Origin: a virus
Lineage: Duplodnaviria > Caudoviricetes
Direction: 5' to 3' (one strand)
IMG/VR virus record: IMGVR_UViG_3300042542_005523
Length of the DNA: 64,000 nt
The position numbers were made by a program, and so were the translations under genes. The notes under the pieces were generated by a model. The model was not told the DNA's origin. It did not search any database and saw only the letters and a list, made by a program, of their open reading frames with translations. This document shows positions 9,760 through 55,053 of this stretch, piece by piece (positions within the stretch are counted from its first letter, which is position 1; the number at the start of each line of letters is the position of its first letter).

Positions 9760-10685
9760 TGCACATAAAGGGATTCCACCAACTTTTTGAGGACTCCGGA
9801 AAGCTTACACAGGAGCAGATAACCTGGCTTGATGAGTGCACTCAGGGGAATTGGACCCTTAATGAAGAGACAGGCGAGGTTGATATAAAGGGAGATTTTA
9901 ATTGTCAAGGGCAGGACTTATCTGACTTTAAGGGAGTAATATTCGGCTATGTGACTGGTAGTTTCAACTGTTCCTTTAATGAACTAACATCACTGGAGGG
10001 AGCACCCTATAGAGTAAATTCTTATTTCGACTGTAAGAAAAACCGGCTCACCTCATTGGAAGGTCTTCCCGAGGGGTTTCAAGTTGGTGGTTTTAGTTGC
10101 CGCCATAACTGGATAACCACACTCAAGGGTGCTCCACAGGAGGTGTTCCTGAACTTTGATTGTGCTGGCAATGATCTGAGATCTTTAGAATATGCTCCAC
10201 AGAAGGTTCAATCTTTTAACTGCCACGGAAATGAGCTCACCTCTCTAAAGGGAGCACCACAGAGCATGAGCGGTAATTTCACATGCTTCAGCAATAGGTT
10301 AACCTCTTTAGAGGGTGCACCTAAAAAAGTGGGCGGTGAATTCGATTGCTTCAATAACAAGCTAACCTCATTAAAGGGAGCACCGCAGGAAATTGGCTGG
10401 GATTTCAATTGCTCTGATAATGATATCTCGTCTCTAGAGGGAGCACCACTAAGTATAGGGGGTGATATTGATTCAGGTGGTAACGTGATCTCTGAAGAGA
10501 TCATGGAGTTTGTTCTTTCTAAAATTGGAAAGGAAGGAGCTAGTCTAGGGCAGGCCGTGAGCAAATGCTGGGAATCTATGAGTGAAGAAGATAGAATTTA
10601 TCTAGCTAAAGACAACCCAGATCTGTCACCAGAGGAAAGAAGAGGCTACGAGGCACTGAGCAGGTACAAGACAAGAGTCATATAG
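9756..10685 (+). CDS. LRR-like repeat protein, paralog 5 (8 repeats)
   Basis: Same N-cap, repeats and C-cap as 2058-5288. Confidence 0.9.
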   Translation: MMHIKGFHQLFEDSGKLTQEQITWLDECTQGNWTLNEETGEVDIKGDFNCQGQDLSDFKGVIFGYVTGSFNCSFNELTSLEGAPYRVNSYFDCKKNRLTSLEGLPEGFQVGGFSCRHNWITTLKGAPQEVFLNFDCAGNDLRSLEYAPQKVQSFNCHGNELTSLKGAPQSMSGNFTCFSNRLTSLEGAPKKVGGEFDCFNNKLTSLKGAPQEIGWDFNCSDNDISSLEGAPLSIGGDIDSGGNVISEEIMEFVLSKIGKEGASLGQAVSKCWESMSEEDRIYLAKDNPDLSPEERRGYEALSRYKTRVI

Positions 10686-27953: not shown

Positions 27954-28472
27954 ATGGCTATAAAAGACATGGTAATATCAAAAGGTAGAAAAAAAGGTAT
28001 AATACACACACGGGATATCACATTGGATGATATACGTGAAGTGTTCTTTCCTAAAGACTTTAATGAAAAATATGGTTACCTGGGATACATTTACACCTCA
28101 GACGATGGCGATGTATGTAAAGTAATACGACCACTCGTACTTGCTATGGACAAGAAAGCCAAACCAAAATGGTGTCCGAGATGGTTTCTACGATTATTAG
28201 ATTTGGTTGGTAACGATAAGTCTATTGTTCGTGTGCGTAACTATAAAGTGAGTAAGCTATTCCAAAGAATAACCAAGGGAATGAGATTCATGGACTGGAA
28301 GACAAAATGGGAATGGTATGACTTACGCATCAGTATTGTAGCAGACCAAGAACTACAAGACATGGCTTCTAGGATTGAGAGAGATTATTACAAGAAGGGC
28401 AAACAAAAAGATGCTCTTATTGAATTAATGAAAGAAGATGAGAGAAATGGATTATATGATGATGTTCTATAA
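27954..28472 (+). CDS. Hypothetical phage protein
   Basis: 172-aa ORF. Confidence 0.75.
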   Translation: MAIKDMVISKGRKKGIIHTRDITLDDIREVFFPKDFNEKYGYLGYIYTSDDGDVCKVIRPLVLAMDKKAKPKWCPRWFLRLLDLVGNDKSIVRVRNYKVSKLFQRITKGMRFMDWKTKWEWYDLRISIVADQELQDMASRIERDYYKKGKQKDALIELMKEDERNGLYDDVL

Positions 28473-28484
28473 AATTAAAAAACT

Positions 28485-29306
28485 ATGAAAAACGTACATT
28501 TGTTACCAACAGACAAACCAAGCAGGTTATATAACAATAATGGTCAATTGCATTTAGATAGTGTTTCAACAACTTCTAATGGACATACGATTAACCAAAA
28601 CATCTACATCACTAATGATGAGGAGATTAAATTTGATGATTATTATTTAGGTGAAGATAATAATCTTTATTGTTTAGTATCTAAAGTTAATTCTAATGGT
28701 AAAAAAATCATTTTAACAACAGACCAAGAATTAATAGATGAGGGTATTCAACCTATAGATGATGAGTTCTTAGAATGGTTTGTTAAGAATCCAAATTGTG
28801 AGGAAGTTTTTCTTACTTATGAGTATGTGCAAGTCAATCAAGGCAATCCAATATTAAGAGGTAGTACTAATGTATCACATAGGTACGAAATCATCATTCC
28901 ACAAGAAGAACCTAAACAAGAAACACTCTCAACTAAATTGCATATAGGTGAAGTAGTTGATGAATCATACCCAGAAGCATTTAGAAAACAAGAAACACTT
29001 GAAGAACCTAAACAAGAAACACTCTCAACTAAATTGCATATAGGTGAAGTAGTTGATGAATCATACCCAGAAGCATTTAGAAAACAAGAAACACTTGAAG
29101 AAGCTGCTATTTTAAACTGCCAAAGTATAACTCATCCTTATTGTGATAGAGAAAAATTAATGTTTATTAAAGGTGCTAAATGGCAAGAGGAGAGAATGTA
29201 TAATGAGGAAGAAGTATTAGAAATCATAAGACAATATGCTCTTGAAGAACATTTAATAACATCAAGTAAACCTGATATATGGTTTGAACAATTTAAAAAG
29301 AAATAG
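28485..29306 (+). CDS. Hypothetical phage protein with KQETL repeats
   Basis: MKNVHLLPTDKPSRL start; internal exact 32-aa duplication. Confidence 0.75.
   Translation: MKNVHLLPTDKPSRLYNNNGQLHLDSVSTTSNGHTINQNIYITNDEEIKFDDYYLGEDNNLYCLVSKVNSNGKKIILTTDQELIDEGIQPIDDEFLEWFVKNPNCEEVFLTYEYVQVNQGNPILRGSTNVSHRYEIIIPQEEPKQETLSTKLHIGEVVDESYPEAFRKQETLEEPKQETLSTKLHIGEVVDESYPEAFRKQETLEEAAILNCQSITHPYCDREKLMFIKGAKWQEERMYNEEEVLEIIRQYALEEHLITSSKPDIWFEQFKKK
28905..29096 (+). repeat. Perfect 96-bp tandem duplication
   Basis: 28905-29000 is identical to 29001-29096. Confidence 0.95.
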
Positions 29307-29309
29307 GTT

Positions 29310-29687
29310 ATGATACAGGACAAAGAAAATCAAACACCACCAATAGCTGCAGCTATCGTAGTAATGGCAATATTAATTGGAATCTCATTTGCTATTTTTA
29401 AAGCGGGGGAACGTGGAGCCTCCGATAAACAACATTATGAGCAACCCGCTATCTCAGACTCGGTAAAACCAGCTCCAGAACAACCCCATGAATCAAAGGA
29501 GGATAGTTTAATAAAACAGCTATATCCTATTTGTGTGGTTGAAGTAAATAAATCTACTCATAAAGAGTATAAGTGGGAAGTGGTAGCAGAGAATGGTTTG
29601 ATGTATTATACCAATAAGAAACCAAAAATTGGTGATCCTGCTTTTTATATCGGCAGTGACAGCGAAACGTTATATTGGACTAAATAA
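29310..29687 (+). CDS. Membrane-anchored hypothetical protein
   Basis: Single N-terminal TM helix. Confidence 0.7.
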   Translation: MIQDKENQTPPIAAAIVVMAILIGISFAIFKAGERGASDKQHYEQPAISDSVKPAPEQPHESKEDSLIKQLYPICVVEVNKSTHKEYKWEVVAENGLMYYTNKKPKIGDPAFYIGSDSETLYWTK

Positions 29688-29708
29688 GTTACGGATAAAG
29701 AAGAAAAA

Positions 29709-29834
29709 ATGGATCGAATAGAAATACACTGGATGACACTTATAGTAAGTACAGTCTTATTAGCGCTACTGTTAGCCCGTCTTATAAAGGAACACATACA
29801 GGAAAAGCGCTGGGAAAATAGAAATCGTAAATAG
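29709..29834 (+). CDS. Small membrane protein (41 aa)
   Basis: Hand-translated MDRIEIHWMTLIVSTVLLALLLARLIKEHIQEKRWENRNRK. Confidence 0.45.
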   Translation: MDRIEIHWMTLIVSTVLLALLLARLIKEHIQEKRWENRNRK

Positions 29835-29862
29835 AAAGTTACGGTACAAAGATAAAACAACT

Positions 29863-30048
29863 ATGGAGAAGTTAATAACGAAATTAAAGACCTTGCAAGA
29901 CAGGCAAAAGGAATTAATGTCTATGATGGCAGAAGAAAAGTATGACAATTTTATTTCCGTTTTAAGGGCTAAAGGATATGCTGATAGCATTATAGAATTA
30001 GAGGCAAAAATAGAAGTTTTAATGGATGCTATATCCATATTAAGATAG
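29863..30048 (+). CDS. Small coiled-coil hypothetical protein
   Basis: 61-aa ORF. Confidence 0.6.
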   Translation: MEKLITKLKTLQDRQKELMSMMAEEKYDNFISVLRAKGYADSIIELEAKIEVLMDAISILR

Positions 30049-30169
30049 CAGTAAAACAATATACATCGGTGTTACTGCGGGAATCACACATATATTTGCA
30101 AAATAAATTAAAAAAGGATCTGAAAAAGACCGAAACAAAAAAGAGAATCTGATATATAAAAACCAAACA

Positions 30170-30319
30170 ATGAGAAACACTCAGAAAAATATGGCAATTA
30201 TTAACCCGGCGAATCCGAAAGGATTTATCGCAGAGGCAGTGAAGCAGCAAGGCTTTTTTGCGTGGGAGAAAGGGATATGCCCAGGTCTGGAGTTTCGATT
30301 TAGTTTACAGGAAAGATAA
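30170..30319 (+). CDS. Candidate leader peptide 1 (49 aa) of tRNA array 1
   Basis: Hand-translated MRNTQKNMAIINPANPKGFIAEAVKQQGFFAWEKGICPGLEFRFSLQER; GATATATA at 30151-30158; overlaps attenuator segment A. Confidence 0.75.
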   Translation: MRNTQKNMAIINPANPKGFIAEAVKQQGFFAWEKGICPGLEFRFSLQER

Positions 30320-30376
30320 GATTTAAACTAAATATCACATTGAAACTCCAGATCGAAAGTCTGGAGTTTTTTTTTT
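30286..30376 (+). promoter_or_regulatory. Attenuator 1: mutually exclusive antiterminator (A:B) and terminator (B:C + T10)
   Basis: A TCTGGAGTTTC 30286-96; inner stem 30298-307/30324-33; B GAAACTCCAGA 30342-52; C TCTGGAGTTT 30360-69; T run 30367-76. Confidence 0.8.
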
Positions 30377-30380
30377 ACAT

Positions 30381-30454
30381 GGGGTTATAGCTTAAATCGG
30401 TGAGAGCGACGGTCTGAAAAACCGTAGATCCGGACTCGAGGCCCGGTATCCCCA
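30381..30454 (+). tRNA. tRNA-Phe(GAA), atypical T-arm
   Basis: Anticodon arm ACGGT-CTGAAAA-ACCGT; T-loop CTCGAGG. Confidence 0.75.
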
Positions 30455-30495
30455 CAAAAGAATCTGATCAACGGATTAGATGCAGAAGATTAAAT

Positions 30496-30569
30496 ACATC
30501 ATTGGTGAAATTGGCTAATCATCTTGGACTCCAAATCCAAGGTTCTGGGTTCGAATCCTAGATGGTGTG
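30496..30569 (+). tRNA. tRNA-Trp(CCA)
   Basis: TTGGA-CTCCAAA-TCCAA; canonical T-arm. Confidence 0.92.
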
Positions 30570-30602
30570 CAGAAATAAGTTCTTTGACATATTGGAAACC
30601 AT

Positions 30603-30675
30603 AATTCCTTAGCTCAGTTGGTAGAGCGCCTCCCTTACATGGAGGAGGCCGCAGGTTCGAGCCCTGCAGGGATTA
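30603..30675 (+). tRNA. tRNA-Val(TAC)
   Basis: CCTCC-CTTACAT-GGAGG; full cloverleaf. Confidence 0.93.
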
Positions 30676-30684
30676 CTTAATTAT

Positions 30685-30757
30685 GCTCGGTTCGTCTAGA
30701 GGCCTAGGACATCCCCCTTTCACGGGGAAAACATGGATTCGAATTCCATACCGAGTA
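30685..30757 (+). tRNA. tRNA-Glu(TTC)
   Basis: TCCCC-CTTTCAC-GGGGA; full cloverleaf. Confidence 0.92.
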
Positions 30758-30830
30758 CAAACATATTAAACAAGAAATTGCCTCGCTAAACTAACCAGGT
30801 TTAGCAAGACAAAAACAGGTTTAGCATAAT

Positions 30831-30918
30831 GACCTCGTGGCGCAATTGGTAGCGCAACTGACTTTTAATCAGTAGGGAAGCTGTATAGCCGTTGTGGGTT
30901 CGAGCCCCACCGGGGTCA
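30831..30918 (+). tRNA. tRNA-Lys(TTT) with 20-nt variable region
   Basis: ACTGA-CTTTTAA-TCAGT; variable region 30874-30893. Confidence 0.85.
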
Positions 30919-30924
30919 CTTTAG

Positions 30925-31033
30925 CGATGGTGGTAACGCGCTTTGAGGAGAAAGTAGCTTTGGACCTGCAAGTCCAGTCAAGCGAAGAGTATCCAATTAG
31001 GAGGATAATTCCACTCGTCACTTGCAGGTGACG
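30925..31033 (+). ncRNA. Candidate structured RNA with complementary hairpin loops
   Basis: Hairpins TGGAC-CTGCAA-GTCCA and CGTCAC-TTGCAG-GTGACG with complementary loops, plus two more stems. Confidence 0.55.
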
Positions 31034-31038
31034 TAAAT

Positions 31039-31112
31039 GGGGTAGTAGCTCAGCTGGTTAGAGCACATGACTGTTAATCATGTGGTCATAGGTTCGAATC
31101 CTATCTACCCCG
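31039..31112 (+). tRNA. tRNA-Asn(GTT)
   Basis: CATGA-CTGTTAA-TCATG. Confidence 0.95.
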
Positions 31113-31119
31113 CTAAAAA

Positions 31120-31192
31120 GCGGAAGTAGCTCAATTGGTAGAGCGCGGCCTTGCCAAGGCCGAGGTTGCCGGATCATTCCCGGTCTTCCGCT
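31120..31192 (+). tRNA. tRNA-Gly(GCC)
   Basis: CGGCC-TTGCCAA-GGCCG; T-loop ATCATTC. Confidence 0.88.
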
Positions 31193-31200
31193 CAAAAAAT

Positions 31201-31273
31201 GCGATAGTAGCTCAATTGGTAGAGCACCGTCCTTCCAAGTCGGGGGTCGCAGGTTCGAGCCCTGTCTATCGCT
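31201..31273 (+). tRNA. tRNA-Gly(TCC)
   Basis: Loop CTTCCAA; acceptor GCGATAG/CTATCGC. Confidence 0.92.
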
Positions 31274-31284
31274 CACCCAAAGAT

Positions 31285-31356
31285 AGCGAGGTAGCTCAGA
31301 GGCAGAGCAACCGACTCATATTCGGTAGGTCAGGATCTCGGAATTCCTCCTCGCTA
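31285..31356 (+). tRNA. tRNA-Met or Ile2 (CAT), atypical T-arm
   Basis: ACCGA-CTCATAT-TCGGT; T-loop CTCGGAA; lacks initiator hallmarks. Confidence 0.72.
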
Positions 31357-31362
31357 CTATAT

Positions 31363-31433
31363 TGTCCCTTCGTCTAAGGGCAGGACAGCTGATTTTGATT
31401 CAGCTAATGGTGGTTCGAATCCATCAGGGACAA
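31363..31433 (+). tRNA. tRNA-Gln(TTG)
   Basis: GCTGA-TTTTGAT-TCAGC. Confidence 0.92.
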
Positions 31434-31444
31434 CAATTTAAAAT

Positions 31445-31519
31445 ACTCAGGTAGCTCAATTGGTTAGAGCACCTCGCTGATACCGAGGAGGCCTGAAGGT
31501 TCGAGTCCTTCTCTGAGTA
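31445..31519 (+). tRNA. tRNA-Ile(GAT)
   Basis: CCTCG-CTGATAC-CGAGG. Confidence 0.92.
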
Positions 31520-31526
31520 CTTAATT

Positions 31527-31601
31527 CGGGATGTAGATCAGTTGGATTAGATCGCCTGGTTTGGGACCAGGAGGCCGCAGGTTCGAGTCCTGCTATCCCG
31601 A
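31527..31601 (+). tRNA. tRNA-Pro(TGG)
   Basis: CCTGG-TTTGGGA-CCAGG. Confidence 0.94.
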
Positions 31602-31608
31602 CTAAAAT

Positions 31609-31681
31609 GGGCCGGTAGCTTAAGAGGCTAAAGCGCTGCACTTGCAATGCAGAATATTGGGTTCGAGTCCCACCGTGTCCA
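31609..31681 (+). tRNA. tRNA-Ala(TGC), irregular acceptor stem
   Basis: CTGCA-CTTGCAA-TGCAG; G3-U70 identity pair present. Confidence 0.82.
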
Positions 31682-31689
31682 CTAAATTT

Positions 31690-31762
31690 GCTCTCATAGC
31701 TCAATGGTCAGAGTCGGACGCTTATATCGTCAAGGTTGCAGGTTCGAGTCCTGTTGGGAGTA
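31690..31762 (+). tRNA. tRNA-Ile(TAT)
   Basis: GACG-CTTATAT-CGTC; canonical T-arm and acceptor. Confidence 0.85.
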
Positions 31763-31889
31763 CAAGTTTCCAATATAAAATTAAAAGTTCATCTGGTTTT
31801 CTGCGGAATCCTGTTCTATATTTGTAAAGTAATTAAAAACTTAGGCATGAAGGAAGGAAAGGAGTTTAAACTAAAAAAGGGTAACTAGA

Positions 31890-31988
31890 ATGGATCAAAT
31901 CGGACACGTCGTTCTCTTTACAATAATAGGATTGCTAATAGCAATGTTAGTATATCTAGCGGCATGGCAACCTAAAAAATGGAAATAA
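31890..31988 (+). CDS. Small membrane peptide (32 aa)
   Basis: Hand-translated MDQIGHVVLFTIIGLLIAMLVYLAAWQPKKWK. Confidence 0.45.
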   Translation: MDQIGHVVLFTIIGLLIAMLVYLAAWQPKKWK

Positions 31989-32210
31989 TGGGATACTGGC
32001 TCTGGGCAGATTGAAAACACACAGGTTAAAATCCTGTACTGATTACAAAAATAAAACCTCAACAAATAAAGTTGTGAGTTGTATTGAAATAGCCAATTAT
32101 AAGCCAACATAAAGCTGTTGGGTGCAGATGGAGTAATTAACCAGGAGCGCAGGCACTGATTGTGACGGTACAACAAATACCCCTCTGAGTTTGGGTTTTA
32201 TTTTAAATAT

Positions 32211-32308
32211 AGTTAGGTGGCGGAATGGTAGACGCACAAGACGGGCGATGCATTTAAAACAGAAATAAGCCTGGTCGGTTTTTACAGGTTCGAATCCTGT
32301 CCTGACTG
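32211..32308 (+). ncRNA. tRNA-like element 1 (48-nt central insert, no anticodon loop)
   Basis: AGTTAGG-TGGCGGAATGGTAGACGC-[insert]-ACAGGTTCGAATCCTGT-CCTGACT-G. Confidence 0.78.
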
Positions 32309-32321
32309 CTAAAAGAAAGTT

Positions 32322-32564
32322 ATGAATAAAATAGAGAATTACAATTTTGACAAAAATGATTGGGCACATTTCCATGATGTTATTTTAGATGTGACTTGGA
32401 ATGATGGTAAAGTGAATCTAAATCAAAAAGAAATGGAACAATTATTTTGGGAGTTACCAGAAGATATGAGAATTGATGCTCAAAAATATGGTATGAATGA
32501 TACACCTTGGAGAGATAGTCTGCGGGTATGGTATGAACGAAATAAAATGGGTAAGACTGTTTAA
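32322..32564 (+). CDS. Hypothetical protein
   Basis: 80-aa ORF between tRNA-like elements. Confidence 0.7.
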   Translation: MNKIENYNFDKNDWAHFHDVILDVTWNDGKVNLNQKEMEQLFWELPEDMRIDAQKYGMNDTPWRDSLRVWYERNKMGKTV

Positions 32565-32579
32565 TTGGTTATAAAACAT

Positions 32580-32698
32580 AGTCAGGTGGCGGAATTGGTA
32601 GACGCTGCTGTGGGGCGACACCACTCTTTTAAAAACAGCATAAGCTCTTGCAATGATGTACACATTGCAAGGTACAGGTTCAAGTCCTGTCCTGACTA
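32580..32698 (+). ncRNA. tRNA-like element 2 (68-nt central insert)
   Basis: Same scaffold; TGCTG/CAGCA stem with expanded loop and 9-bp CTTGCAATG/CATTGCAAG arm. Confidence 0.78.
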
Positions 32699-32700
32699 CT

Positions 32701-32779
32701 CTGGGCTCAGTAAAGCCTCTTATCGTAAGATAACGTAACTGAAGTGGATAACCTAGAAATAGGTGACGCTCCACTATGG
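32701..32779 (+). ncRNA. Candidate structured RNA with two GNRA hairpins
   Basis: TTATC-GTAA-GATAA inside TCAGT/ACTGA; ACCTA-GAAA-TAGGT inside AGTGGA/TCCACT. Confidence 0.55.
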
Positions 32780-32859
32780 AGTCAGGTGGCGCAATTGGAA
32801 AACGCAACTCGCGGTGTACACAGAGGAGTGAATTACAGGTTCGAGTCCTGTCCTGACTA
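32780..32859 (+). ncRNA. tRNA-like element 3 (29-nt central insert)
   Basis: Same scaffold; ACTC/GAGT stem with 15-nt loop. Confidence 0.75.
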
Positions 32860-32861
32860 CA

Positions 32862-33070
32862 CGTTCCGACTAATCATCGGATAGTATGCCTCATACGATG
32901 AGAAGTGGTGTGATAGCCACAGAGGAGAGTTGAAGGTTCGTATATACAAACCTTCCAGTTGACTACTGACGTCGGTAAAACCCTTCACGAGGGGAGCAAG
33001 ACAGTCTATTCCTAACTCAGCAATGAGGACAGCCATATCACCTGTAAGTTGGATAAATTAGGGTGTTTTT
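32862..33070 (+). ncRNA. Candidate multi-hairpin structured RNA (about 205 nt)
   Basis: At least six hand-found hairpins and long-range CCGAC/GTCGG and TAGT/ACTA pairings; no ORF. Confidence 0.55.
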
Positions 33071-33074
33071 ATAT

Positions 33075-33237
33075 AGTCAGGTGGCGGAATTGGTAGACGC
33101 TATCGTACTCAAGTAAGGCAAAGCAATGTAGATGAAACGTCGTCGCATGGTGAGTTAACACCTAAAAGTCTTTGGACTTGAAATCCAAAAAACCTTGAGT
33201 ATGTTCTACGATACAGGTTCGAATCCTGTCCTGACTA
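33075..33237 (+). ncRNA. tRNA-like element 4 (112-nt central insert)
   Basis: Same scaffold; insert closed by TACTCAAG/CTTGAGTA; contains TTTGGA-CTTGAAA-TCCAAA. Confidence 0.78.
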
Positions 33238-33262
33238 CAAAAATTAAAATCTAAGGTAATAA

Positions 33263-33544
33263 ATGAAATGCTACGAATGTAAACACAGAGGAAATGTAAT
33301 AGGCTCAGCTCATAGCAGCTGTGGTGTTATCAGAAGCACAGGTAGTGAGAAGGGACAGGAGTTAGAATTCATGCTGGCGATGGGGCAGGTCGAAATGAAA
33401 GATCAAGATGGTAACCCTATTGTTGATATAGACCCTCATGGTATTCAAAACGGATGGGCTGCTTGGCCTATAGATTTCGATCCAGTTTGGATAAGATCCT
33501 GTAAATTCTATACAGAAAAAGAGAAAACAGGTGAATTGAAATAA
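33263..33544 (+). CDS. Cys-containing hypothetical phage protein
   Basis: CYECKHR...SAHSSC...GWAAWPIDFDPVWIRSC. Confidence 0.75.
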   Translation: MKCYECKHRGNVIGSAHSSCGVIRSTGSEKGQELEFMLAMGQVEMKDQDGNPIVDIDPHGIQNGWAAWPIDFDPVWIRSCKFYTEKEKTGELK

Positions 33545-33553
33545 ATAACATAT

Positions 33554-33627
33554 GCTACCGTGGTGTAACTGAATAACACGTCTAACTACGGATTAGAAGA
33601 GCGAGGGTTTGAATCCTTCCGGTAGTA
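33554..33627 (+). tRNA. tRNA-Arg(ACG)
   Basis: TCTAA-CTACGGA-TTAGA. Confidence 0.9.
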
Positions 33628-33685
33628 CAAAAAATAATCGAAATTAGAAGAAACAAAAAGATGTTCTGATATATAATAACATAAT

Positions 33686-33778
33686 ATGAAAAACTTGATC
33701 CATACATCCTTACATTTATCCACCACGAGTACCACTTGTGATTCGGATTTATTGTGGAGGAGGCTAATGGATCAATAA
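33686..33778 (+). CDS. Candidate leader peptide 2 (30 aa) of tRNA array 2
   Basis: Hand-translated MKNLIHTSLHLSTTSTTCDSDLLWRRLMDQ; GATATATA at 33668-33675. Confidence 0.78.
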   Translation: MKNLIHTSLHLSTTSTTCDSDLLWRRLMDQ

Positions 33779-33830
33779 TAATATTGAATTTTGATTCTGA
33801 AAAAGCCTCCCCTAAAAAGGAGGCTTTTTT
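33755..33830 (+). promoter_or_regulatory. Attenuator 2: antiterminator (A:B) versus terminator (B:C + T run)
   Basis: A GGAGGCT 33759-65; inner TCAATA-ATAA-TATTGA; B AAAAAGCCTCC 33800-10; C GGAGGCTTTTTT 33819-30. Confidence 0.8.
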
Positions 33831-33860
33831 ATTGGCTCTTTGATTTATTAGATTTAACAC

Positions 33861-33944
33861 GGAAGAGGAATCACAGCGGCCTGTGAGCTAGTCTTGAAAA
33901 CTATGCGTACCTCCGGGTATTGGGATCGACACCTACCTCTTCCG
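33861..33944 (+). tRNA. tRNA-Ser(TGA), 8/4 acceptor/T-stem type
   Basis: GGAAGAGG/CCTCTTCC 8 bp; T-stem TGGG/CCTA 4 bp; loop CTTGAAA; 6-bp D-stem; variable arm. Confidence 0.8.
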
Positions 33945-33952
33945 CTTTTTCC

Positions 33953-34028
33953 GGGGCCTGTGGTGTAATGGCTTGCATAACACACTGTCACTGTGTAGGT
34001 CGGGGTTCGAATCCCCCAGGTCCCGCCA
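33953..34028 (+). tRNA. tRNA-Asp(GTC), 8/4 type, encoded CCA
   Basis: GGGGCCTG/CAGGTCCC 8 bp; GGGG/CCCC T-stem; ACACA-CTGTCAC-TGTGT; G73 then CCA. Confidence 0.85.
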
Positions 34029-34030
34029 AT

Positions 34031-34118
34031 GGAAGATGATCCTAAACGGAGATAGGATCCGCCTGCTAAGCGAGATGTTCGGGTAAAACCGGATGAGGTT
34101 CGATCCCTCCGTCTTCCG
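34031..34118 (+). tRNA. tRNA-Ser(GCT), 8/4 type
   Basis: GGAAGATG/CGTCTTCC 8 bp; GAGG/CCTC T-stem; loop CTGCTAA; variable arm. Confidence 0.8.
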
Positions 34119-34123
34119 CAAAC

Positions 34124-34196
34124 TCCAGAGTAGCTCAATTGGTAGAGCCCTTGTTTTGTAAACAAGTGGTTGTCGGTTCGATTCCGTCCTCTGGAT
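34124..34196 (+). tRNA. tRNA-Thr(TGT)
   Basis: CTTGT-TTTGTAA-ACAAG. Confidence 0.92.
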
Positions 34197-34201
34197 CTAA
34201 T

Positions 34202-34274
34202 GACACCGTGTCTGAATGGTTTAGGTCCAGGTCTGCAAAACCTTGGTACGTGGGTTCGAATCCCTCCGGTGTCT
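34202..34274 (+). tRNA. tRNA-Cys(GCA)
   Basis: Loop CTGCAAA; acceptor GACACCG/CGGTGTC. Confidence 0.9.
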
Positions 34275-34280
34275 CTATAT

Positions 34281-34355
34281 GGTGTCTATAGTGTCAGCGG
34301 TATAGCACGACGGGTTGTGGTTCCGTTAGCACCAGTTCGAATCTGGTTAGACACA
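34281..34355 (+). tRNA. tRNA-His(GTG)
   Basis: ACGGG-TTGTGGT-TCCGT; G-1 encoded, discriminator A rather than the usual bacterial C. Confidence 0.88.
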
Positions 34356-34362
34356 CTAATAA

Positions 34363-34447
34363 GCCCCGGTGGCGAAACAGGCTATACGCACCAGACTTAA
34401 GATCTGGCGATCAGTGAATCGTGTGGGTTCGAATCCCACCCGGGGTA
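34363..34447 (+). tRNA. tRNA-Leu(TAA)
   Basis: CCAGA-CTTAAGA-TCTGG; variable arm. Confidence 0.93.
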
Positions 34448-34479
34448 CATAATTTTTTGTACTTTGATATATAGGTATT

Positions 34480-35079
34480 ATGATTGAAGGATACAAAAAA
34501 TACCAAAACGGATTTGTCAAAGACCCAGCTTCTTACTTGTTAAAAGAAGAAGAAAACGTTACTGCCAGCACAAGCCTGGTAACACCGAAAACTCTTAATG
34601 ATTTTTCGGAATCAATATCATCCTCCCTGAATGAGAGAATCGGTGACGAGTATGCTGCTCACTATTTCTATAGAAATGCTGCCAATTGGTGTAAAAATGT
34701 CAATTATAAAAATGCCACAGCATATTTTGAAGCTGAGGCTGCCAGCGAATTAGATCACGCTAAGGGATTACAAGACTACCTGACACAGTGGAACCTAATG
34801 CCTGCTATTCCTGCTGCTCCAACGCAGCATTCTTTTGAAAATCTAGCAGATATTATCAATAAGGCTTACGAGATAGAGTATGAGTTAATGCTTAAATACT
34901 CCGACAATCAAAAAGAGTTCTTAAATGATCACCCAGCAACTTTCAATTTTATTCAGAAATATGTTGATATACAGAATGAAGCTGTTGCTGAATACTCGGA
35001 TCTTTTAAATGCTCTTAATCTAGTGGACATCAACAATAGATTGGATGTCCTTTACTTCGAGAACAATTACTTCGGATAG
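34480..35079 (+). CDS. ftnA: Non-heme ferritin
   Basis: ERIGDEYAAHYFY...EAASELDHA...EIE...QNEA ferroxidase-centre pattern. Confidence 0.8.
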   Translation: MIEGYKKYQNGFVKDPASYLLKEEENVTASTSLVTPKTLNDFSESISSSLNERIGDEYAAHYFYRNAANWCKNVNYKNATAYFEAEAASELDHAKGLQDYLTQWNLMPAIPAAPTQHSFENLADIINKAYEIEYELMLKYSDNQKEFLNDHPATFNFIQKYVDIQNEAVAEYSDLLNALNLVDINNRLDVLYFENNYFG

Positions 35080-35093
35080 TAATTAGTTACCCG

Positions 35094-35513
35094 TTACAAT
35101 TCTTTAGAAAAGGTTAGACCCGCATATCCTCTCGAGAAATCGAAAGAGAAGTTCGTGTTTGGTATGTAAACTGATGCTCCTAAATATTTACTATTTCCAG
35201 TTTCATCCTGCCAATCGTCTACGTATATCTCAATTCCCTTGTTTGCCAATAAGTCTGAAGCTTTGGATATGAAATCTGGATCATCTGGCTTAAACTTTAT
35301 GATCTGCGATTTTATTGACGAGTCCATTGATATCTTAGGTACGTTCAGCAGAGATTTTTTAAAATCAGAATTCATCTTTAGATAGTCGACTTTACCAAAT
35401 TTTGGAGCCTCTATCTTAAAATTAGTTAGAGACATTTTTGGATCTGGTTTAACTGTGGTAGACTGCCCACCCTCATTTATAAAATCTTCGAAAAGTTTTA
35501 TGTTTTTCATCAC
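35094..35513 (-). CDS. Hypothetical protein with capsid-targeting-like N-terminus
   Basis: MKNIKLFEDFINE. Confidence 0.78.
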   Translation of the reverse strand: MMKNIKLFEDFINEGGQSTTVKPDPKMSLTNFKIEAPKFGKVDYLKMNSDFKKSLLNVPKISMDSSIKSQIIKFKPDDPDFISKASDLLANKGIEIYVDDWQDETGNSKYLGASVYIPNTNFSFDFSRGYAGLTFSKEL

Positions 35514-35612
35514 TGATTTTTTATTTTATATATCGAGAGAATCCCTTTGTAAATGAATAAATAAAGGAGGACCCGGATTTTTAAGGGTTCTTTTCAGTAT
35601 AATAAAAGAACT

Positions 35613-36122
35613 ATGGAAAATCGACTTGACGGTAACTGGAGAAGACTAACAGATTCACAAGAAATTGAATTGCTGTCTTATATTAAATCCTGGATGGACG
35701 AAAATCCAGGACACAAGATCTATATTGGATGTGACTCCCAAAACAAGGGCAGATCTACAACTTATGCAACTGTCATAGTTCTACACTATCCTAGCGGTGG
35801 TGGACACGTCTTGTACAAAAAAGAGAAAATCGAAAAGGTGTCATCCAGTTTCGAGAGGCTCTGGAAAGAAGTAGAGCTTAGTGTGGAAATTGCTAATCTT
35901 TTAATAGATTCAGGTCTAGGTAAACCCGATTGCATAGACGTCGATCTAAATCCAGATCCGAGATACAACTCAAATCAATTACTAAGAGCAGCTGTTGGTC
36001 TTATAGAATCCATGGGGATTCAGGCTAGATATAAATCGAAATCGCCATGGGCTATTAGTATAGCTGACACTATGTGTAAAAGTAAGACGGGTAAGAAACC
36101 AAGAAAAAAACCAGTTAGATAA
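35613..36122 (+). CDS. Ribonuclease H-like YkuK family protein
   Basis: IYIGCDSQ...TYATVIVLH...RLWKEVELS...IDVDLN...ADTMC. Confidence 0.85.
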   Translation: MENRLDGNWRRLTDSQEIELLSYIKSWMDENPGHKIYIGCDSQNKGRSTTYATVIVLHYPSGGGHVLYKKEKIEKVSSSFERLWKEVELSVEIANLLIDSGLGKPDCIDVDLNPDPRYNSNQLLRAAVGLIESMGIQARYKSKSPWAISIADTMCKSKTGKKPRKKPVR

Positions 36123-37260: not shown

Positions 37261-39411
37261 ATGTATTATTGCGATAAGATTTTAATGGAGAAAGAATATA
37301 TGGAAAATTACGAGGAAGACTATGATCTAAACCTTTCGCCCTCTAACAAATACGGGGACGACGAAGACGATGACACACCAACAGGTGGTTTCAAATCATC
37401 GCAGAATAAATCATCAAAAACACCTGCACTAGACACCTATTCGAGGGATCTGACAGCTATGGCTGCTAGGGGTGAACTCGATCCTATTATAGGAAGAGAT
37501 CACGAGATCGAAAGGGTGTCCCAGATTCTATGTAGAAGAAAAAAGAACAATCCGGTTCTAATAGGAGAACCCGGTGTTGGTAAATCAGCAATTGCAGAAG
37601 GTATCGCCATCCGAATAGTTCAGAGAAAGGTTTCGAGGAATCTTCTTAATAAAAGGATCATTAGTCTGGACATTGCCTCGATTGTGGCCGGTACTAAATA
37701 CAGGGGTCAGTTTGAGGAAAGAATGAAGGCTATCATCGAGGAGCTAAGAGACGATCCTAGTGTGATCATCTTCATTGATGAAATCCACACTATGGTTGGA
37801 GCAGGTGGAGCATCCGGATCCCTTGACGCTTCGAATATGTTTAAGCCTCCTCTTGCTAGGGGTGAACTCCAATGCATAGGTGCCACAACCCTAAACGAAT
37901 ATAGACAGCATATTGAGAAGGATGGAGCTTTGGAAAGAAGATTCCAGAAAATCATCGTGGAAGCTCCAGATGCTGATACGACAATCAAGATCCTCAATAA
38001 CATCAAGTCTAAATACGAGGACCACCACAACGTTACTTACACAGAGGATGCTATTCTAAATTGTGTTAAGCTAACAGAGAGATACATCACCGATAGAAAT
38101 TTTCCAGATAAGGCACTAGATGCTTTAGACGAGGCAGGATCAAGAACACAGCTAACAGAAGTTAAAGTTCCTGATGCAATCAAGAACCTAGAGAAGAATC
38201 TTGATAATATTCACATTGATAAAAAAGACGCAGTCACTAAACAAGACTACGAAGCTGCTGCTAAATTCAGGGACTTAGAAAGAAAGATCAGAGTTAATTT
38301 GGAGCTGGAACAGAAAAACTGGGAGAGTAAACTTAAGGAAGATCGAAAAGTGGTTGATGGAGATAAGGTAGCCGAGGTAGTTTCGATGATGAGTGGGGTT
38401 CCTTTGAAAAAAGTAACACAGGAGGAGAATGAAAAACTTGCTAATCTTGGTCCGGATCTTAAATCTAAAGTGATAGGGCAGGATCCAGCTATCGAGAAAA
38501 TAGCAAAGGCTATTCTTCGTAATAGAATGGGACTAAAAGATCCTAATAAACCAATTGGCTCCTTTATATTCCTAGGTCCTACAGGGGTTGGAAAGACTCA
38601 ACTTGCCAAAGAATTGGCAAAACAATTATTCGGGGATGCCGATGCTTTAATTAGAGTCGATATGAGTGAGTATATGGAGAAGTTTAACTCAACTAAACTC
38701 ATTGGCGCACCTCCGGGCTATGTTGGTCACGAAGAAGGTGGGCAACTGACAGAAAAGGTTAGAAGAAAGCCATACTCGATAGTTCTTTTCGATGAGATTG
38801 AAAAAGCACACCCGGATATCTTTAATTCTTTGCTTCAAATTCTGGACGAAGGTTTAATAACCGACGGTCTCGGCAGAAAGATTAACTTCAAGAACACCTT
38901 GATTATTCTGACATCCAACGTGGGGCAGAGAAAACTAAATGAGTTTGGATCTAGCATTGGATTCTCTAAGGACAAGGCGGAGAAGGCAAAAATAGAAGGC
39001 GAGATCCTACTTAAGAAAGAGCTGGAAAAAACATTTTCTCCGGAGTTCTTAAACAGACTTGACGAGATCATCTACTTTGATCCGCTGGCTAAGGAAAACA
39101 TTATTAAGATCCTTGATGTCGAATTGGATATAATGAAACCTAGGTTTGAATCAATTGGTATTAAAATCAAGATAACTGACACATTAAAAGAGAAGATAGC
39201 TGAGGTTGGCTACGATCCTAAATTCGGTGCTAGACCACTAAAAAGAGTTCTTCAGAAATACGTAGAAGACACTGTTGCTGAAACAATGATCAATAATAAG
39301 ATCAATCCAGGCGATACCTTTACCCTTGACTTTGATCCTAAGAAGGAGGGAACGACTTCTACTCCGGTAAAAGTTAAAATAACCGCCAAAAAACAGAAAC
39401 CAACTGAGTAA
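37261..39411 (+). CDS. clpC: ClpC-like AAA+ chaperone lacking the Clp N-domain
   Basis: Two Walker A motifs (GEPGVGKS, GPTGVGKT), UVR-like middle domain, IGFS loop; acidic N-terminal extension; true start may be M9 or M14. Confidence 0.88.
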   Translation: MYYCDKILMEKEYMENYEEDYDLNLSPSNKYGDDEDDDTPTGGFKSSQNKSSKTPALDTYSRDLTAMAARGELDPIIGRDHEIERVSQILCRRKKNNPVLIGEPGVGKSAIAEGIAIRIVQRKVSRNLLNKRIISLDIASIVAGTKYRGQFEERMKAIIEELRDDPSVIIFIDEIHTMVGAGGASGSLDASNMFKPPLARGELQCIGATTLNEYRQHIEKDGALERRFQKIIVEAPDADTTIKILNNIKSKYEDHHNVTYTEDAILNCVKLTERYITDRNFPDKALDALDEAGSRTQLTEVKVPDAIKNLEKNLDNIHIDKKDAVTKQDYEAAAKFRDLERKIRVNLELEQKNWESKLKEDRKVVDGDKVAEVVSMMSGVPLKKVTQEENEKLANLGPDLKSKVIGQDPAIEKIAKAILRNRMGLKDPNKPIGSFIFLGPTGVGKTQLAKELAKQLFGDADALIRVDMSEYMEKFNSTKLIGAPPGYVGHEEGGQLTEKVRRKPYSIVLFDEIEKAHPDIFNSLLQILDEGLITDGLGRKINFKNTLIILTSNVGQRKLNEFGSSIGFSKDKAEKAKIEGEILLKKELEKTFSPEFLNRLDEIIYFDPLAKENIIKILDVELDIMKPRFESIGIKIKITDTLKEKIAEVGYDPKFGARPLKRVLQKYVEDTVAETMINNKINPGDTFTLDFDPKKEGTTSTPVKVKITAKKQKPTE

Positions 39412-47205: not shown

Positions 47206-48402
47206 ATGGAAAAACCAAACAATATGATACCACTATTTAAGGTATTTATGGACAACAAAGCGGGAGAAGAGGTTAATAAAATTTTAAATTCCGGATTTAT
47301 CGGCCAAGGTAAAAAGGTAGAAGAATTTGAGGCTTTACTTAAAAATTATTTCAGAAACTATCTAGTACTAACAACTAATGCTGCGACCTCAGCAGAGCAT
47401 TTAGCTCTACATATGCTAAGAAATCCATCAACTAATAACGTTTCGGTTGATGGTGTTGCACATTATCAATCAAGCTGGCCAGGAATAAACCCAGGAGATG
47501 AGATATTAACTACCCCCTTGACATGCACAGCAACCAATTGGCCAATCCTTGCTAATGGATTTAAGATAAAATGGGTGGATGTAGATCCTAATACATGTAA
47601 CATGGATTTAGATGACTTAGCAAGAAAGATAACACCAAAGACTAAAGCTATAATGGTAGTTCACTGGGGAGGATATCCGGTAGATCTTGATAAATTGAAA
47701 GATATACAAAATAAAGCTAGCAAAATAATAGGGTTTAAACCGGCTATAATAGAGGACTGTGCACACGCATTTGGAAGCTCGTATAAGGGTAAAAAAATAG
47801 GTAACCATGGTAACATATGTACATTCAGTTTTCAAGCAATTAAACATCTTACAACAGGAGACGGCGGAGCTTTAGTGGTTCCCCATAAAGACCTGTATGA
47901 CAGAGGAAAACTACTAAGATGGTATGGAATTGACAGGGAAACCAATAGTAAAGATTTCAGATGTGAGGATGACATTAAGGAATGGGGCTATAAATTTCAT
48001 ATGAATGATATAAATGCAACCATAGGGATTAATAATTTCAACAAGGTGACGGAGGAGCTGATAAACATAAATATAGAAAATGCTAATTTCTATAATGATA
48101 AACTATCGGGCTTAAAAGACGTCGAACTTATGGAGGTATCGGAGGATAAAAAATCATCGTATTGGATATACACGATCAAAGTAAAAAATAGGGACAGATT
48201 CATGGACCATATGAGGGATTGCAACATAATGGTCAGCAGAGTTCATGAGAGAAATGACAAGCATACGTGCGTGGCAGAATATAAATCAATTCTTCCGAAT
48301 TTAGAAAAACTAACCGAAGAAATGATCTGCATTCCCTGCGGATGGTGGGTATCTAAGGAGGACAGAGAATATATCGTAGAATGCATAAAAAAAGGATGGT
48401 AA
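47206..48402 (+). CDS. DegT/DnrJ/EryC1/StrS PLP aminotransferase
   Basis: IIEDCAHAFG, TFSFQAIKHLTTGDGG, GYKFHM. Confidence 0.93.
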   Translation: MEKPNNMIPLFKVFMDNKAGEEVNKILNSGFIGQGKKVEEFEALLKNYFRNYLVLTTNAATSAEHLALHMLRNPSTNNVSVDGVAHYQSSWPGINPGDEILTTPLTCTATNWPILANGFKIKWVDVDPNTCNMDLDDLARKITPKTKAIMVVHWGGYPVDLDKLKDIQNKASKIIGFKPAIIEDCAHAFGSSYKGKKIGNHGNICTFSFQAIKHLTTGDGGALVVPHKDLYDRGKLLRWYGIDRETNSKDFRCEDDIKEWGYKFHMNDINATIGINNFNKVTEELININIENANFYNDKLSGLKDVELMEVSEDKKSSYWIYTIKVKNRDRFMDHMRDCNIMVSRVHERNDKHTCVAEYKSILPNLEKLTEEMICIPCGWWVSKEDREYIVECIKKGW

Positions 48403-52876: not shown

Positions 52877-53767
52877 ATGATAATACAGGAAATGAATCCA
52901 ATTAAATCGGCGGAAAAAATTAAAGTGATCTTTAACTGCTCAATATTCGAATTCCATAAGGACTACTGTTATAACATAGCAAAAGAATTAACTAACAGAG
53001 GACATATAGCAATCATAGAGGAGGATAGAAATGCATTTCATGCTGATGCAGACTTTACAATACAACCCGATGAAGCATGCTTAAGAATGGGTGGTAAGGG
53101 TATCTGGATAAATCACGCATTTCCTTTCGTGCCGCAGAATGAATTTTATTCATCAACAGAATTTATGGATGAGCTAAATAGAAACTCTGATTACATATTT
53201 ACTTTTTCCGACGAATGGGTCGAAAATCAAAAACATTACGGACTTCCGATATTTAATGTGGGAATGCCAAAATTGGACAATTTCTCCAGGATTCAAACCG
53301 ATGTGTTTAATATTCTGTATGTTCCTACGTGGAACGAAGAGCTTACAAGTTCAAGAGTAATAGATATCGAAATGCTAAAGACCAAAGGTAACCTCATTTA
53401 TAGGGGTCACCCAGCATTTAACACCAGTGAAATTCCACTAATGGAAGCTTTATCAATAGCTGATGTTGTGATAACAGATTATTCTTCGGTTGGATTAGAA
53501 TCGATAGTGCTGGATATACCAACAATATTTTACACTAATGAAAGATATGGTTCAGTTGGTGATCATATATCAAATAAAGCGATGGAAGCTGGTATCTGCG
53601 TTAGTGACGATGTTGCATTGGAAGTAGCAATAGAAACATACCGAAACAATCCATCATTTTTATCTATAGAAAGAGAGAAGTATTCAAAAATACTAGCATC
53701 AAATTTGGGGGAATCATCAATATGCTTTGTCAATACCCTAGAAAAAATAAAATCAGAATGCATATGA
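52877..53767 (+). CDS. CDP-glycerol glycerophosphotransferase (TagF-like) family protein
   Basis: [24 protein letters not shown]. Confidence 0.78.
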
Positions 53768-55053
53768 AAAAAGTCTATATAGCAATGAGTGCCGATTTAG
53801 TCCACCATGGTCACTTAAACATAATCGAGGAAGGTAGAAAATTAGGCGATGTTATTGTCGGAGTATTAACAGATAAAGCTATAGCATCATATAAGAGACT
53901 TCCGTATTTAGATTTTGAAGCAAGAAGTAGAATAATAGAAAATATAAAAGGTGTAAATCTAGTTGTTCCCCAGGAGACCCTTGATTATGTAGAAAATCTT
54001 AGAAAATACAAACCTGATTACGTTATACATGGTGACGATTGGCAAACGGGAAGACAAAAACAAGTAAGAGAAAGAGTTATAGAAACCATAGGCGAATGGG
54101 GAGGTGAATTGGTAGAGATTCCGTACACCGAAGGAATATCTTCAACACAGTTGAACTATATACAAAAAAGTATAGGTACTTCTCCCGCTATCAGACAATC
54201 TAAGTTAAGAAGGCTACTTGATTCCAAAGAAATAGTTAGAGGCATGGAAGCACATACTGGATTGAGCGGAATAATAGTAGAAAAAGCTTTTGTTGTTAAA
54301 GATGATAAAACCGAAGAATTTGATTGCATATGGATGTCAAGTTTAACAGATTCTACATCAAAAGGGAAACCCGATATTGAGTTGGTTGATAGACTTGATA
54401 CATTAAATCAGGTGCTAGAGGTAACAACTAAGCCTATTATAGTAGATGGTGATACTGGAGGTGTAGAAGAACATTTCTGTTATACAGTAAGGACTTTGGA
54501 AAGACTAGGGGTTTCGGCTATAATTATAGAGGATAAAATCGGTCTTAAGAAAAATTCACTATTCGGAACTGACGTCGACCAAGAGCAAGACACGGTCGAT
54601 AACTTTTGCTCCAAGATAGCAGCAGGTAAAAAATCTCAGGTATCAAATGAATTCATGATCATTGCCAGAATAGAGAGCCTTATATTAGGTAATGGTCTTG
54701 ATGATGCTATATTAAGAGCTGAAAAATATATAGCCGCTGGTGCTGATGGTATTATGATACATAGCAAAAAAACAGATCCGAATGAAATATTCGAATTCTG
54801 TAAAATGTATCAGAAGCTAAATAATAAAGCACCTCTTTTTGCTGTTCCTTCAACGTATGATTCAGTAACAGAGAAAGAACTAATAGACAATAATATAGAT
54901 TTAGTAATCTATGCAAATCATCTAATAAGAAGCGCATACCCCGCAATGCTTAAAACCGCTGAAAGCATACTGCTTCACGAGAGGGGCAAGGAGGCATCGG
55001 AAAATTGTTTAAGCATAAAGGAAATATTAGATCTAATACCAGGGACAAGATAA
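53764..55053 (+). CDS. pepM: Phosphoenolpyruvate mutase with N-terminal cytidylyltransferase domain
   Basis: ADLVHHGH (HxGH) N-domain; [13 protein letters not shown]-mutase motif; start moved to MKKVYIAMS. Confidence 0.93.

Follow-up and report, generated by a model that had tools for sequence, protein, structure and literature searches.

The stretch of DNA analyzed here, hereafter referred to as the window, comprises 64,000 nucleotides (nt) of a virus of the Caudoviricetes (Duplodnaviria), IMG/VR record IMGVR_UViG_3300042542_005523, and the element of interest is a putative transcription attenuator at 30148-30376, situated directly upstream of a group of transfer RNA (tRNA) genes. The parts of this element and the tRNA arrays of the window all lie on the plus strand. 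An open reading frame (ORF) of 49 codons, leader ORF 1, extends from an ATG start at 30170 to a TAA stop ending at 30319, and between it and the tRNA genes we found an intrinsic terminator, namely a 12 base pair (bp) hairpin (30342-30370) followed by a run of ten T. tRNA-Phe begins 4 nt further on and is the first gene of tRNA array 1 (30381-31763), which continues with Trp, Val, Glu, Lys, Asn, Gly GCC, Gly UCC, a Met-type CAU tRNA, Gln, Ile GAU, Pro, Ala and Ile UAU. Thirteen of these genes were identified by ARAGORN, while the CAU tRNA (31285-31356) was added by Rfam with 50.3 bits, so that 14 tRNAs serve 12 amino acids (F, W, V, E, K, N, G, M, Q, I, P and A). One of the genes, tRNA-Lys UUU (30831-30919), is 89 nt long, with extra bases compared to a standard tRNA, and is separated from tRNA-Asn by a 119-nt spacer (30920-31038).

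The leader peptide begins with Met-Arg-Asn-Thr, after which residues 5-36, encoded by 32 codons at 30182-30277 and here called the sensor run, consist only of F, W, V, E, K, N, G, Q, I, P, A and M, all twelve being present. All 32 codons can be read by the 14 tRNAs of array 1 under standard wobble, and each of the 14 tRNAs in turn has at least one codon in the run, which samples them with one to four codons apiece. The correspondence includes ATA with Ile UAU, GGA and GGG with Gly UCC, and GGC with Gly GCC. An earlier note on this DNA, made by a model from the letters alone, had claimed a series of 32 consecutive codons decoded by the 14 downstream tRNAs, a core devoid of S, T, L, H, C, D, Y and R, and the use of ATT, ATC and ATA as well as GGA, GGC and GGG in agreement with the Ile GAU, Ile UAU, Gly UCC and Gly GCC tRNAs; all three observations could be reproduced at the same positions, the core being residues 5-36 and every tRNA being represented. 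When all six frames of the window were searched, the sensor run turned out to be the longest composed of its amino acid set (32 codons, with 19 for the next), and in 60 shuffles of the window the longest such run averaged 16 and reached a maximum of 21. Furthermore, when 1354 short ORFs of the window and of related loci were scored against array 1, none equalled leader 1. The arrangement of a short ORF, complete with start codon, directly before the genes to be regulated is repeated in 15 further units. The sequence upstream of the leader 1 start is A-rich and lacks a Shine-Dalgarno motif, as is the case for other genes in the window.

The codons that correspond to array 1 are concentrated upstream of a strand capable of antitermination, segment A (30284-30300, leader codons 39-44; core TCTGGAGTTT at 30286-30295), with the run ending 7-9 nt before it. 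Segment B (30342-30353; core GAAACTCCAGA at 30342-30352) is the 5' arm of the terminator and is common to the two competing pairings A:B and B:C, where segment C (30360-30369) is the terminator 3' arm, overlapping the start of the T10 run (30367-30376). The A core and C are identical 10-mers, and an 11-nt exact copy of C was reached by none of 500 shuffles. The A:B pairing is extended by a perfect inner stem of 10 bp (30298-30307 with 30324-30333), in the loop of which the stop codon (30317-30319) is found. With -21.4 kcal/mol, compared to -15.1 kcal/mol for the terminator hairpin, the A:B duplex was matched by none of 300 shuffles, and the leader RNA as a whole (30150-30378) folds at -58.8 kcal/mol, corresponding to z = -4.1 relative to shuffled controls. 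Its minimum-energy structure contains A:B and not the terminator. The identity of A and C, their competition for B with a T run after C, and the inner stem around the stop codon had all been pointed out in the earlier note and were found as described, except that B starts at 30342 rather than at 30341; the folding proposed there as a check likewise places A:B in the minimum-energy structure and makes it competitive with B:C.

The effect of a translating ribosome was modeled by folding the RNA with a footprint of 27 nt masked. The antiterminator results when the A site is on codons 2-36, while codons 37-47, from which the ribosome masks segment A, give the terminator; on codons 48-50 segment A is free again. 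The suggestion that a ribosome reaching the stop codon would melt A:B therefore holds only in part: such a ribosome covers the inner stem, yet leaves A and B themselves free. Since it covers the inner stem alone, termination would hinge on timing rather than on a ribosome parked at the stop. The free fold of this unit is the antiterminator, and the only candidate for a protector or pause structure is a small hairpin, AATCC-GAAA-GGATT (30212-30225), which lies inside the sensor run, is partly retained in the minimum-energy fold and had also been noticed before; it may act as a pause site for RNA polymerase. As there is no clear protector hairpin, a complete absence of translation should give read-through, and the unit should respond also to any global slowdown of translation.

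Known regulatory RNA families were searched for with Rfam. No T-box was matched in a scan of 28000-36000 at E<=1, nor did any of the curated leader families (Phe_leader, His_leader, Trp_leader and others) give a hit at 30150-30380. The sole leader hit was a Phe_leader match at 33770-33833, which at 27.7 bits is below the gathering threshold of 55 (E=0.23). The element was consequently ruled out as a T-box or a member of a known Rfam leader family.

A sister unit, attenuator 2, is found at 33665-33830. Its leader ORF (33686-33778) has 30 codons, 18 of which (33701-33754) form a run of H, T, S, L, C and D only, the longest of that set in the window (18, with 13 for the next). The unit further comprises segments A (33756-33765), B (33800-33810) and C with the T run (33819-33830), and precedes tRNA array 2 (33861-34448), with Ser UGA, Asp, Ser GCU, Thr, Cys, His and Leu UAA. 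With default settings ARAGORN reports seven tRNAs at 33554-34448, and Ser UGA (33861-33945) appears only at a relaxed threshold. The six amino acids of the run are the six of array 2 and are complementary to those of array 1. The fit extends to isoacceptors, as all four Leu codons are TTR, in line with Leu UAA, and Ser is encoded by both TCN and AGT, in line with Ser UGA and Ser GCU. Tyr is absent from both leaders of the window, as is tRNA-Tyr from both arrays. Segment A of leader 2 can pair with the terminator 5' arm (terminator 33800-33830), and in the free fold it pairs with the 5' part of the run.

Uncultured relatives were found in IMG/VR by means of a neighboring protein of 273 amino acids, after which tRNA arrays were located at their loci. 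These phages divide their tRNAs over arrays differently from the window, and each leader follows its own array. Locus L118 has three units. The leader of the first reads THTTCPQWFTPT and precedes tRNAs for Pro, Thr, Phe, Gln, His, Trp and Cys; that of the second reads INMIVDNGIGANEK and precedes Lys, Val, Asn, Met, Gly, Glu, Asp, Met, Ile and Ala; and the third has a run of L, S and Y, using both codon boxes of Leu and of Ser, in front of Leu UAG, Leu UAA, Ser UGA, Ser GCU and a Tyr GUA-like element. In L037, leader NNIHINFSQWCQPYS of unit a is combined with Ile, Asn, Tyr, Trp, Phe, Pro, Gln, His, Ser, Ile, Arg and Cys, and leader LEVVKTKMEGADSL of unit b with Ser, Asp, Val, Glu, Thr, Lys, Met, Ala, Gly and Leu. 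L129 contains two leaders homologous to both L037 units, with similar arrays, except that Asp and Glu are located elsewhere. The first leader of L120 is made up of L, R, A, E and G and belongs to an array of Glu, Met, Arg, Gly, Ala, Leu and Met, while its second leader has 47 residues without A, E or G, thereby using exactly the other 17 amino acids, for which the array holds the tRNAs. In L123, a 23-residue run of 14 amino acids is found together with tRNAs for those 14, and in L116 and L119, where a single leader precedes one long array, all 20 amino acids occur within 44-46 residues.

In ten curated units, nine leaders scored highest with their own array, and the observed total was reached by none of 100000 permutations (p<=1e-5). 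With runs defined by amino acid alone, the codon box agrees with the isoacceptor carried by the array for 20 of the 21 Leu, Ser and Arg codons, with 9.1 expected (P=4e-8); over whole leaders the count is 25 out of 32 (P=5e-5). L120 illustrates the principle, as leader 1 has CTT, CTG and AGA together with Leu UAG and Arg UCU, while leader 2 has TTA and CGC together with Leu UAA and Arg ACG. A match at the level of the codon box argues that the sensed quantity is the tRNA and not the amino acid. The leader codons also pointed to tRNAs that default ARAGORN had missed and that were then found with a relaxed threshold or by inspection, namely the Ser UGA of the window mentioned above and, in L118, Thr (925-998), His (1233-1306), Trp (1308-1385) and the Tyr GUA-like element (3765-3856). 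Having predicted four tRNA genes and a tRNA-Tyr-like element, leader composition can help to annotate divergent phage tRNAs and to place operon boundaries. When units and boundaries were defined by automatic rules, the best units remained unique top scorers.

The leader-array design was absent from three unrelated tRNA-rich phages, namely a T5-like Vibrio phage, a mycobacteriophage (Bixzunavirus) and PA5oct. Fourteen loci related to the ferritin-like gene next to array 2 were inspected, none of which had tRNAs nearby, and the closest relative of a 125-amino acid upstream gene has no array at the corresponding place. IMG/VR searches with the leader peptide and with a 93-amino acid ORF between the arrays returned no relatives. 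Among GenBank phages, DNA matches to the window were confined to the tRNAs, the 273-amino acid protein had no relative, and no cultured relative was found.

The architecture of the switch appears conserved as well. In 13 out of 13 units, the best partner of the terminator 5' arm is located within the last 3-12 leader codons and ends 3-23 nt before the stop; in eight of these, an equally good pairing with that arm was obtained from no more than 2 of 300 shuffles. Five units, including both from the window, have an A:B pairing at least as stable as the terminator hairpin. Segments A, B and C covary between homologues, being CCGAG/CTCGG/CGAG in L114 and CCGGG/CCCGG/CGGG in L116, and similar three-way changes separate L113 and L119 from L120 and L122. 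In the units compared, 2-9 nt separate the end of the matched run from A, and 21-27 nt separate the stop from B, the latter distance being too great for a ribosome to melt the terminator. Since every unit has A within the closing codons of its ORF, an advancing ribosome would instead remove the antiterminator. As a kinetic proxy, transcripts were folded after being cut before C, with a ribosome placed along the leader. B is then held by upstream sequence when the ribosome is on early or middle codons, and in most units it is freed when the ribosome is on the last 8-10 codons.

Taken at the level of sequence, the codon match, the terminator, the competing and covarying A:B pairing and the recurrence with different tRNA partitions are established. 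In our judgment, the region 30148-30376 is probably a ribosome-mediated transcription attenuator placed before a phage tRNA operon, by which the decoding capacity for its own tRNA set is sensed, and the phage probably makes the array 1 tRNAs only when their codons are read slowly. The earlier note had already proposed a leader-peptide attenuator based on A:B versus B:C, and this proposal gains strong comparative support from the sister unit, the own-array match of the relatives, the isoacceptor fit and the covariation of A, B and C.

The mechanism that we envisage is the following. A promoter just upstream would start the transcript, whose first feature is the 49-codon leader ORF, presumably translated by a ribosome coupled to the RNA polymerase ahead of it. 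Should any codon of the run be slow, with its charged tRNA scarce or destroyed, the lead ribosome would stall upstream of A, leaving A free to capture B once B has been transcribed. The B:C terminator would then be blocked and RNA polymerase would continue into tRNA-Phe and the rest of array 1, the presumed polarity being that a stall leads to read-through. With fast decoding, the ribosome would instead be on codons 37-47 and cover A while B and C emerge, so that B:C could form and transcription would end at the T10 run. The tRNA supply would thereby be regulated by negative feedback, a shortage of any one of the 14 tRNAs being sufficient (an OR gate), with array 2 under the control of a sensor of its own. 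Plausible triggers are loss of host tRNA, anticodon nucleases, or a high tRNA demand late in infection. Somewhat speculatively, the circuit could serve as counter-defence, the leader being a test translation that reports the catastrophic loss of any host tRNA in its set and turns on the matching replacements. The loss would in that case stem from anticodon nucleases, other tRNA-cleaving defences or host tRNA decay during infection, and arrays that are sensed separately would allow independent responses to different attacks.

Some RNA-level data are available. The DNA of this uncultured phage is present in at least 14 lake or freshwater metagenome runs, and two metatranscriptome assemblies hold contigs identical to leader 1, covering 30165-30327 and 30176-30303. 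In those two runs, contigs covering tRNAs belong to other organisms, the matches to the window being to the leader only. Such leader-only contigs fit short, attenuated transcripts, although they do not prove them.

A number of observations weigh against the attenuator as proposed, or at least complicate it. Contigs from RNA libraries cannot show where transcripts end, and such libraries can carry DNA; coming from contigs, the RNA evidence for the leader is weak. In unit 1, neither A nor B is covered by a ribosome parked at the stop, so that termination would need tight timing between ribosome and polymerase. With C included, the equilibrium fold prefers the terminator in all units but unit 1, and in the others the choice must accordingly be kinetic, as in trpL. 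Each codon occurs one to four times and not in tandem as in hisL or pheL, which possibly makes the sensitivity to a mild shortage low; set against the analysis of codon number in amino acid operon leaders (PMC1183508), single codons would appear to suit the sensing of severe loss rather than of mild shortage. Under automatic boundaries several units score weakly, and the curated boundaries were partly chosen by the analyst; the weak scores derive from three spurious ORFs overlapping tRNAs and from gap rules that shortened arrays. Some of the tRNA calls depend on the relaxed ARAGORN threshold. The L129-b leader (2608-2706) keeps its Glu and Asp codons with those tRNAs situated about 7 kilobases downstream in a third cluster (10484-10640), whereas the homologous L037 unit has them inside the array, and the leader thus appears to lag behind a rearrangement. 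An Ala-to-Thr change interrupts the run in L122-1. Finally, a conserved promoter-like 17-mer, GTTCTTTGACATATTGG, occurs inside array 1 at 30579, while in relatives it directly follows the terminator. Should it be a promoter, the part of array 1 from Val to Ile UAU could bypass the attenuator.

The alternative that best survives is that the codon match is indeed selected, while the polarity or the regulated step is another one: efficient translation of the leader could promote expression of the array through protection or processing of the precursor, or it could govern precursor stability or processing by ribonucleases. The free A and B under a ribosome at the unit 1 stop, where antitermination is still possible in principle, and the equilibrium folds, which in most units favor the terminator at any ribosome position, are both compatible with this, and the promoter-like motif past the terminator in relatives suggests that the attenuator is not the sole control. 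We nevertheless regard it as unlikely, as the constant distance of 21-27 nt from stop to B keeps a ribosome too far away to melt the terminator, the location of A within the last codons of every ORF means that ribosome advance removes the antiterminator, and the matched run always ends 2-9 nt before A, which is where a stall leaves A free.

Alternatively, the ORFs might encode small functional peptides and the hairpins be ordinary terminators of mini-genes, with the likeness between composition and tRNAs due to some other cause. The conserved position of the ORF, the Met-Lys start of 10 out of 15 leaders, which resembles that of many real genes, and the coverage of the leader by RNA-library contigs would all suit such peptides. 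Between close homologues, however, the peptides drift freely with only the composition class kept, the substitutions within the run staying in the amino acid set of the array in 5 out of 5 and 10 out of 10 cases, which fits a codon sampler and not a functional peptide. Neither does a peptide function predict the complementary splits within one phage (the window, L118 and L120), which track tRNAs down to codon boxes, and the ORF 3' ends are constrained by pairing with the terminator arm, with which they covary. We therefore find this explanation very improbable. Lastly, that an ordinary short ORF came to precede a terminator and a tRNA array by chance alone is hardly conceivable, for even though short ORFs are common in AT-rich DNA and the 12-amino acid set covers about 60% of residues, the six-frame and shuffle maxima of 19 and 21 fall well below 32, the window holds a second unit, the permutation and isoacceptor tests gave p<=1e-5 and P=4e-8, and the three unrelated tRNA-rich phages lack the pattern.

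Turning from these alternatives to the sequences around the proposed attenuator, three motifs may be involved in its transcription. The box TATATTTG (30091-30098) fits the Bacteroidota-type -7 promoter box TAnnTTTG and is a candidate promoter. Similar boxes precede most of the related leaders. The long ORFs of the window show no enrichment of the -7 box motif in their upstream regions. The 12-mer TCTGATATATAA is found at 30148-30159, 10 nt before the leader 1 ATG, and again at 33665-33676, 9 nt before the leader 2 ATG, and has no other exact copy in the window. It may serve as a promoter or as an initiation element, and an RNA-library contig begins near 30162, just past it. The 17-mer mentioned above (30579-30595) is situated 8 nt before tRNA-Val and resembles the 12-mer. 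In the window and in 10 related phage loci, representing about nine phages, it is located 7-13 nt before a tRNA 5' end, except for two looser matches, and its sites are either between two tRNAs or, often, right after an attenuator terminator. The motif could represent an internal promoter or a phage promoter class, or else a processing signal. Its recorded places are 30579-30595 and 34459-34475 in the window, 947 and 2964 in L037, 847 in L117, and 1034 and 3172 in L120, in addition to other loci, and a variant precedes the ferritin-like gene. A Shine-Dalgarno motif was seen in 2 out of 61 long ORFs of the window, which is the level expected by chance, and the 15 nt before start codons contain 52% A. 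The lack of Shine-Dalgarno use, the A-rich starts and the TATATTTG box are suggestive of a Bacteroidota-like host.

The tRNA regions contain other elements as well. Four tRNA-like elements in the window (32211-32308, 32580-32698, 32780-32859 and 33149-33237) have constant acceptor, D and T parts around variable inserts and score 25-44 bits as tRNA in Rfam. The same element occurs in related phages, and its T arm translates as RFESCPDY. Protein-coding ORFs are found within the tRNA arrays of relatives (L037 1140-1679, L120 4299-5927 and L118 1880-2209), one of them being rich in Cys and His and similar to HNH homing endonucleases. These ORFs recall the tRNA region of T4, which contains endonuclease genes. 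A freshwater-1 RNA (Rfam, 86 bits) is placed between two tRNAs in L120 (7824-7885, minus strand), and a transfer-messenger RNA gene (68.6 bits) lies within the tRNA region of L115 (7110-7604, minus strand). Elsewhere in the window there are genes for a ClpB-like two-domain AAA ATPase (37261-39408), a fusion of cytidylyltransferase and phosphoenolpyruvate mutase connected to phosphonate synthesis (53722-55050), a DegT-family aminotransferase (47206-48399) and the ferritin-like protein (34480-35076).

The roles of phage tRNAs have been debated for decades, the proposals including codon compensation, replacement of degraded host tRNAs and evasion of tRNA-cleaving defences (PMC10264068, PMC11555353), and anticodon nucleases and other phage defences that cleave tRNA have been described in the same sources. 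If the attenuator works as proposed, the phage gauges how well codons can be decoded and produces tRNAs as they are needed, and the role of its tRNAs becomes directly testable. It would also extend leader-peptide attenuation to non-coding RNA genes, with direct feedback on tRNA supply and a many-input OR gate. No description of leader-peptide control of tRNA genes was found in the full-text literature searched, with most subscription journals being outside its coverage.

The closest known counterparts are the leader attenuators of enterobacterial amino acid operons, both the multivalent ones of ilvGMEDA, ilvBN and thr and the single-amino acid ones such as trpL, hisL, pheL and leuL. With the ilv, thr and trpL type, the phage unit shares the short leader ORF, the regulatory codons located before the antiterminator strand, the terminator 5' arm common to both folds and, presumably, the decision between folds by ribosome position; with the ilv and thr leaders it further shares the reading of more than one amino acid. 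There are, however, clear differences. Amino acid operon attenuators control biosynthetic enzymes, whereas the phage unit precedes 14 tRNA genes, and their leaders have tandem repeats of one to three amino acids, whereas the phage leader combines 12 amino acids, 14 tRNAs and one to four codons for each. The phage unit also differs from the classical attenuators in that tRNA would be sensed at the level of the codon box, in lacking a clear segment 1 protector hairpin, and in having no sequence similarity to them. Leader-peptide attenuation of amino acid operons has been reviewed, with an analysis of codon number (PMC1183508).

Comparison with other translation-related switches gives a similar picture of partial overlap. 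In T-box regulation too, genes of the translation apparatus are controlled by a choice between terminator and antiterminator that depends on the state of a specific tRNA. The T-box binds uncharged tRNA directly, via a specifier codon and the T-box sequence, and needs neither ribosome nor ORF, whereas the phage element would work through a translated ORF and read many tRNAs. In leaders of the erm and cat type, a drug-bound ribosome acts on a specific peptide, and it is mostly translation initiation of a resistance gene that is controlled. In these leaders, as predicted for the phage unit, a ribosome stalled on a short leader ORF remodels the downstream RNA, but in the phage it is the codon content that matches the downstream tRNA set, and the predicted output is transcription termination. 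Among genes of the decoding apparatus, pheM, the leader of pheST in E. coli, is a leader-peptide attenuator of a synthetase gene. His leader peptides have been reported before hisS paralogues in bacilli, in a paper that mentions the erm and cat type leaders as well (PMC2965389). Like the phage unit as proposed, the pheM and hisS leaders represent leader-peptide attenuation of a decoding-apparatus gene, read by means of cognate codons. They sense one amino acid and control a protein gene, however, whereas the phage unit would sense many species at once, and because the products of the controlled genes are the sensed molecules themselves, the feedback in the phage would be direct.

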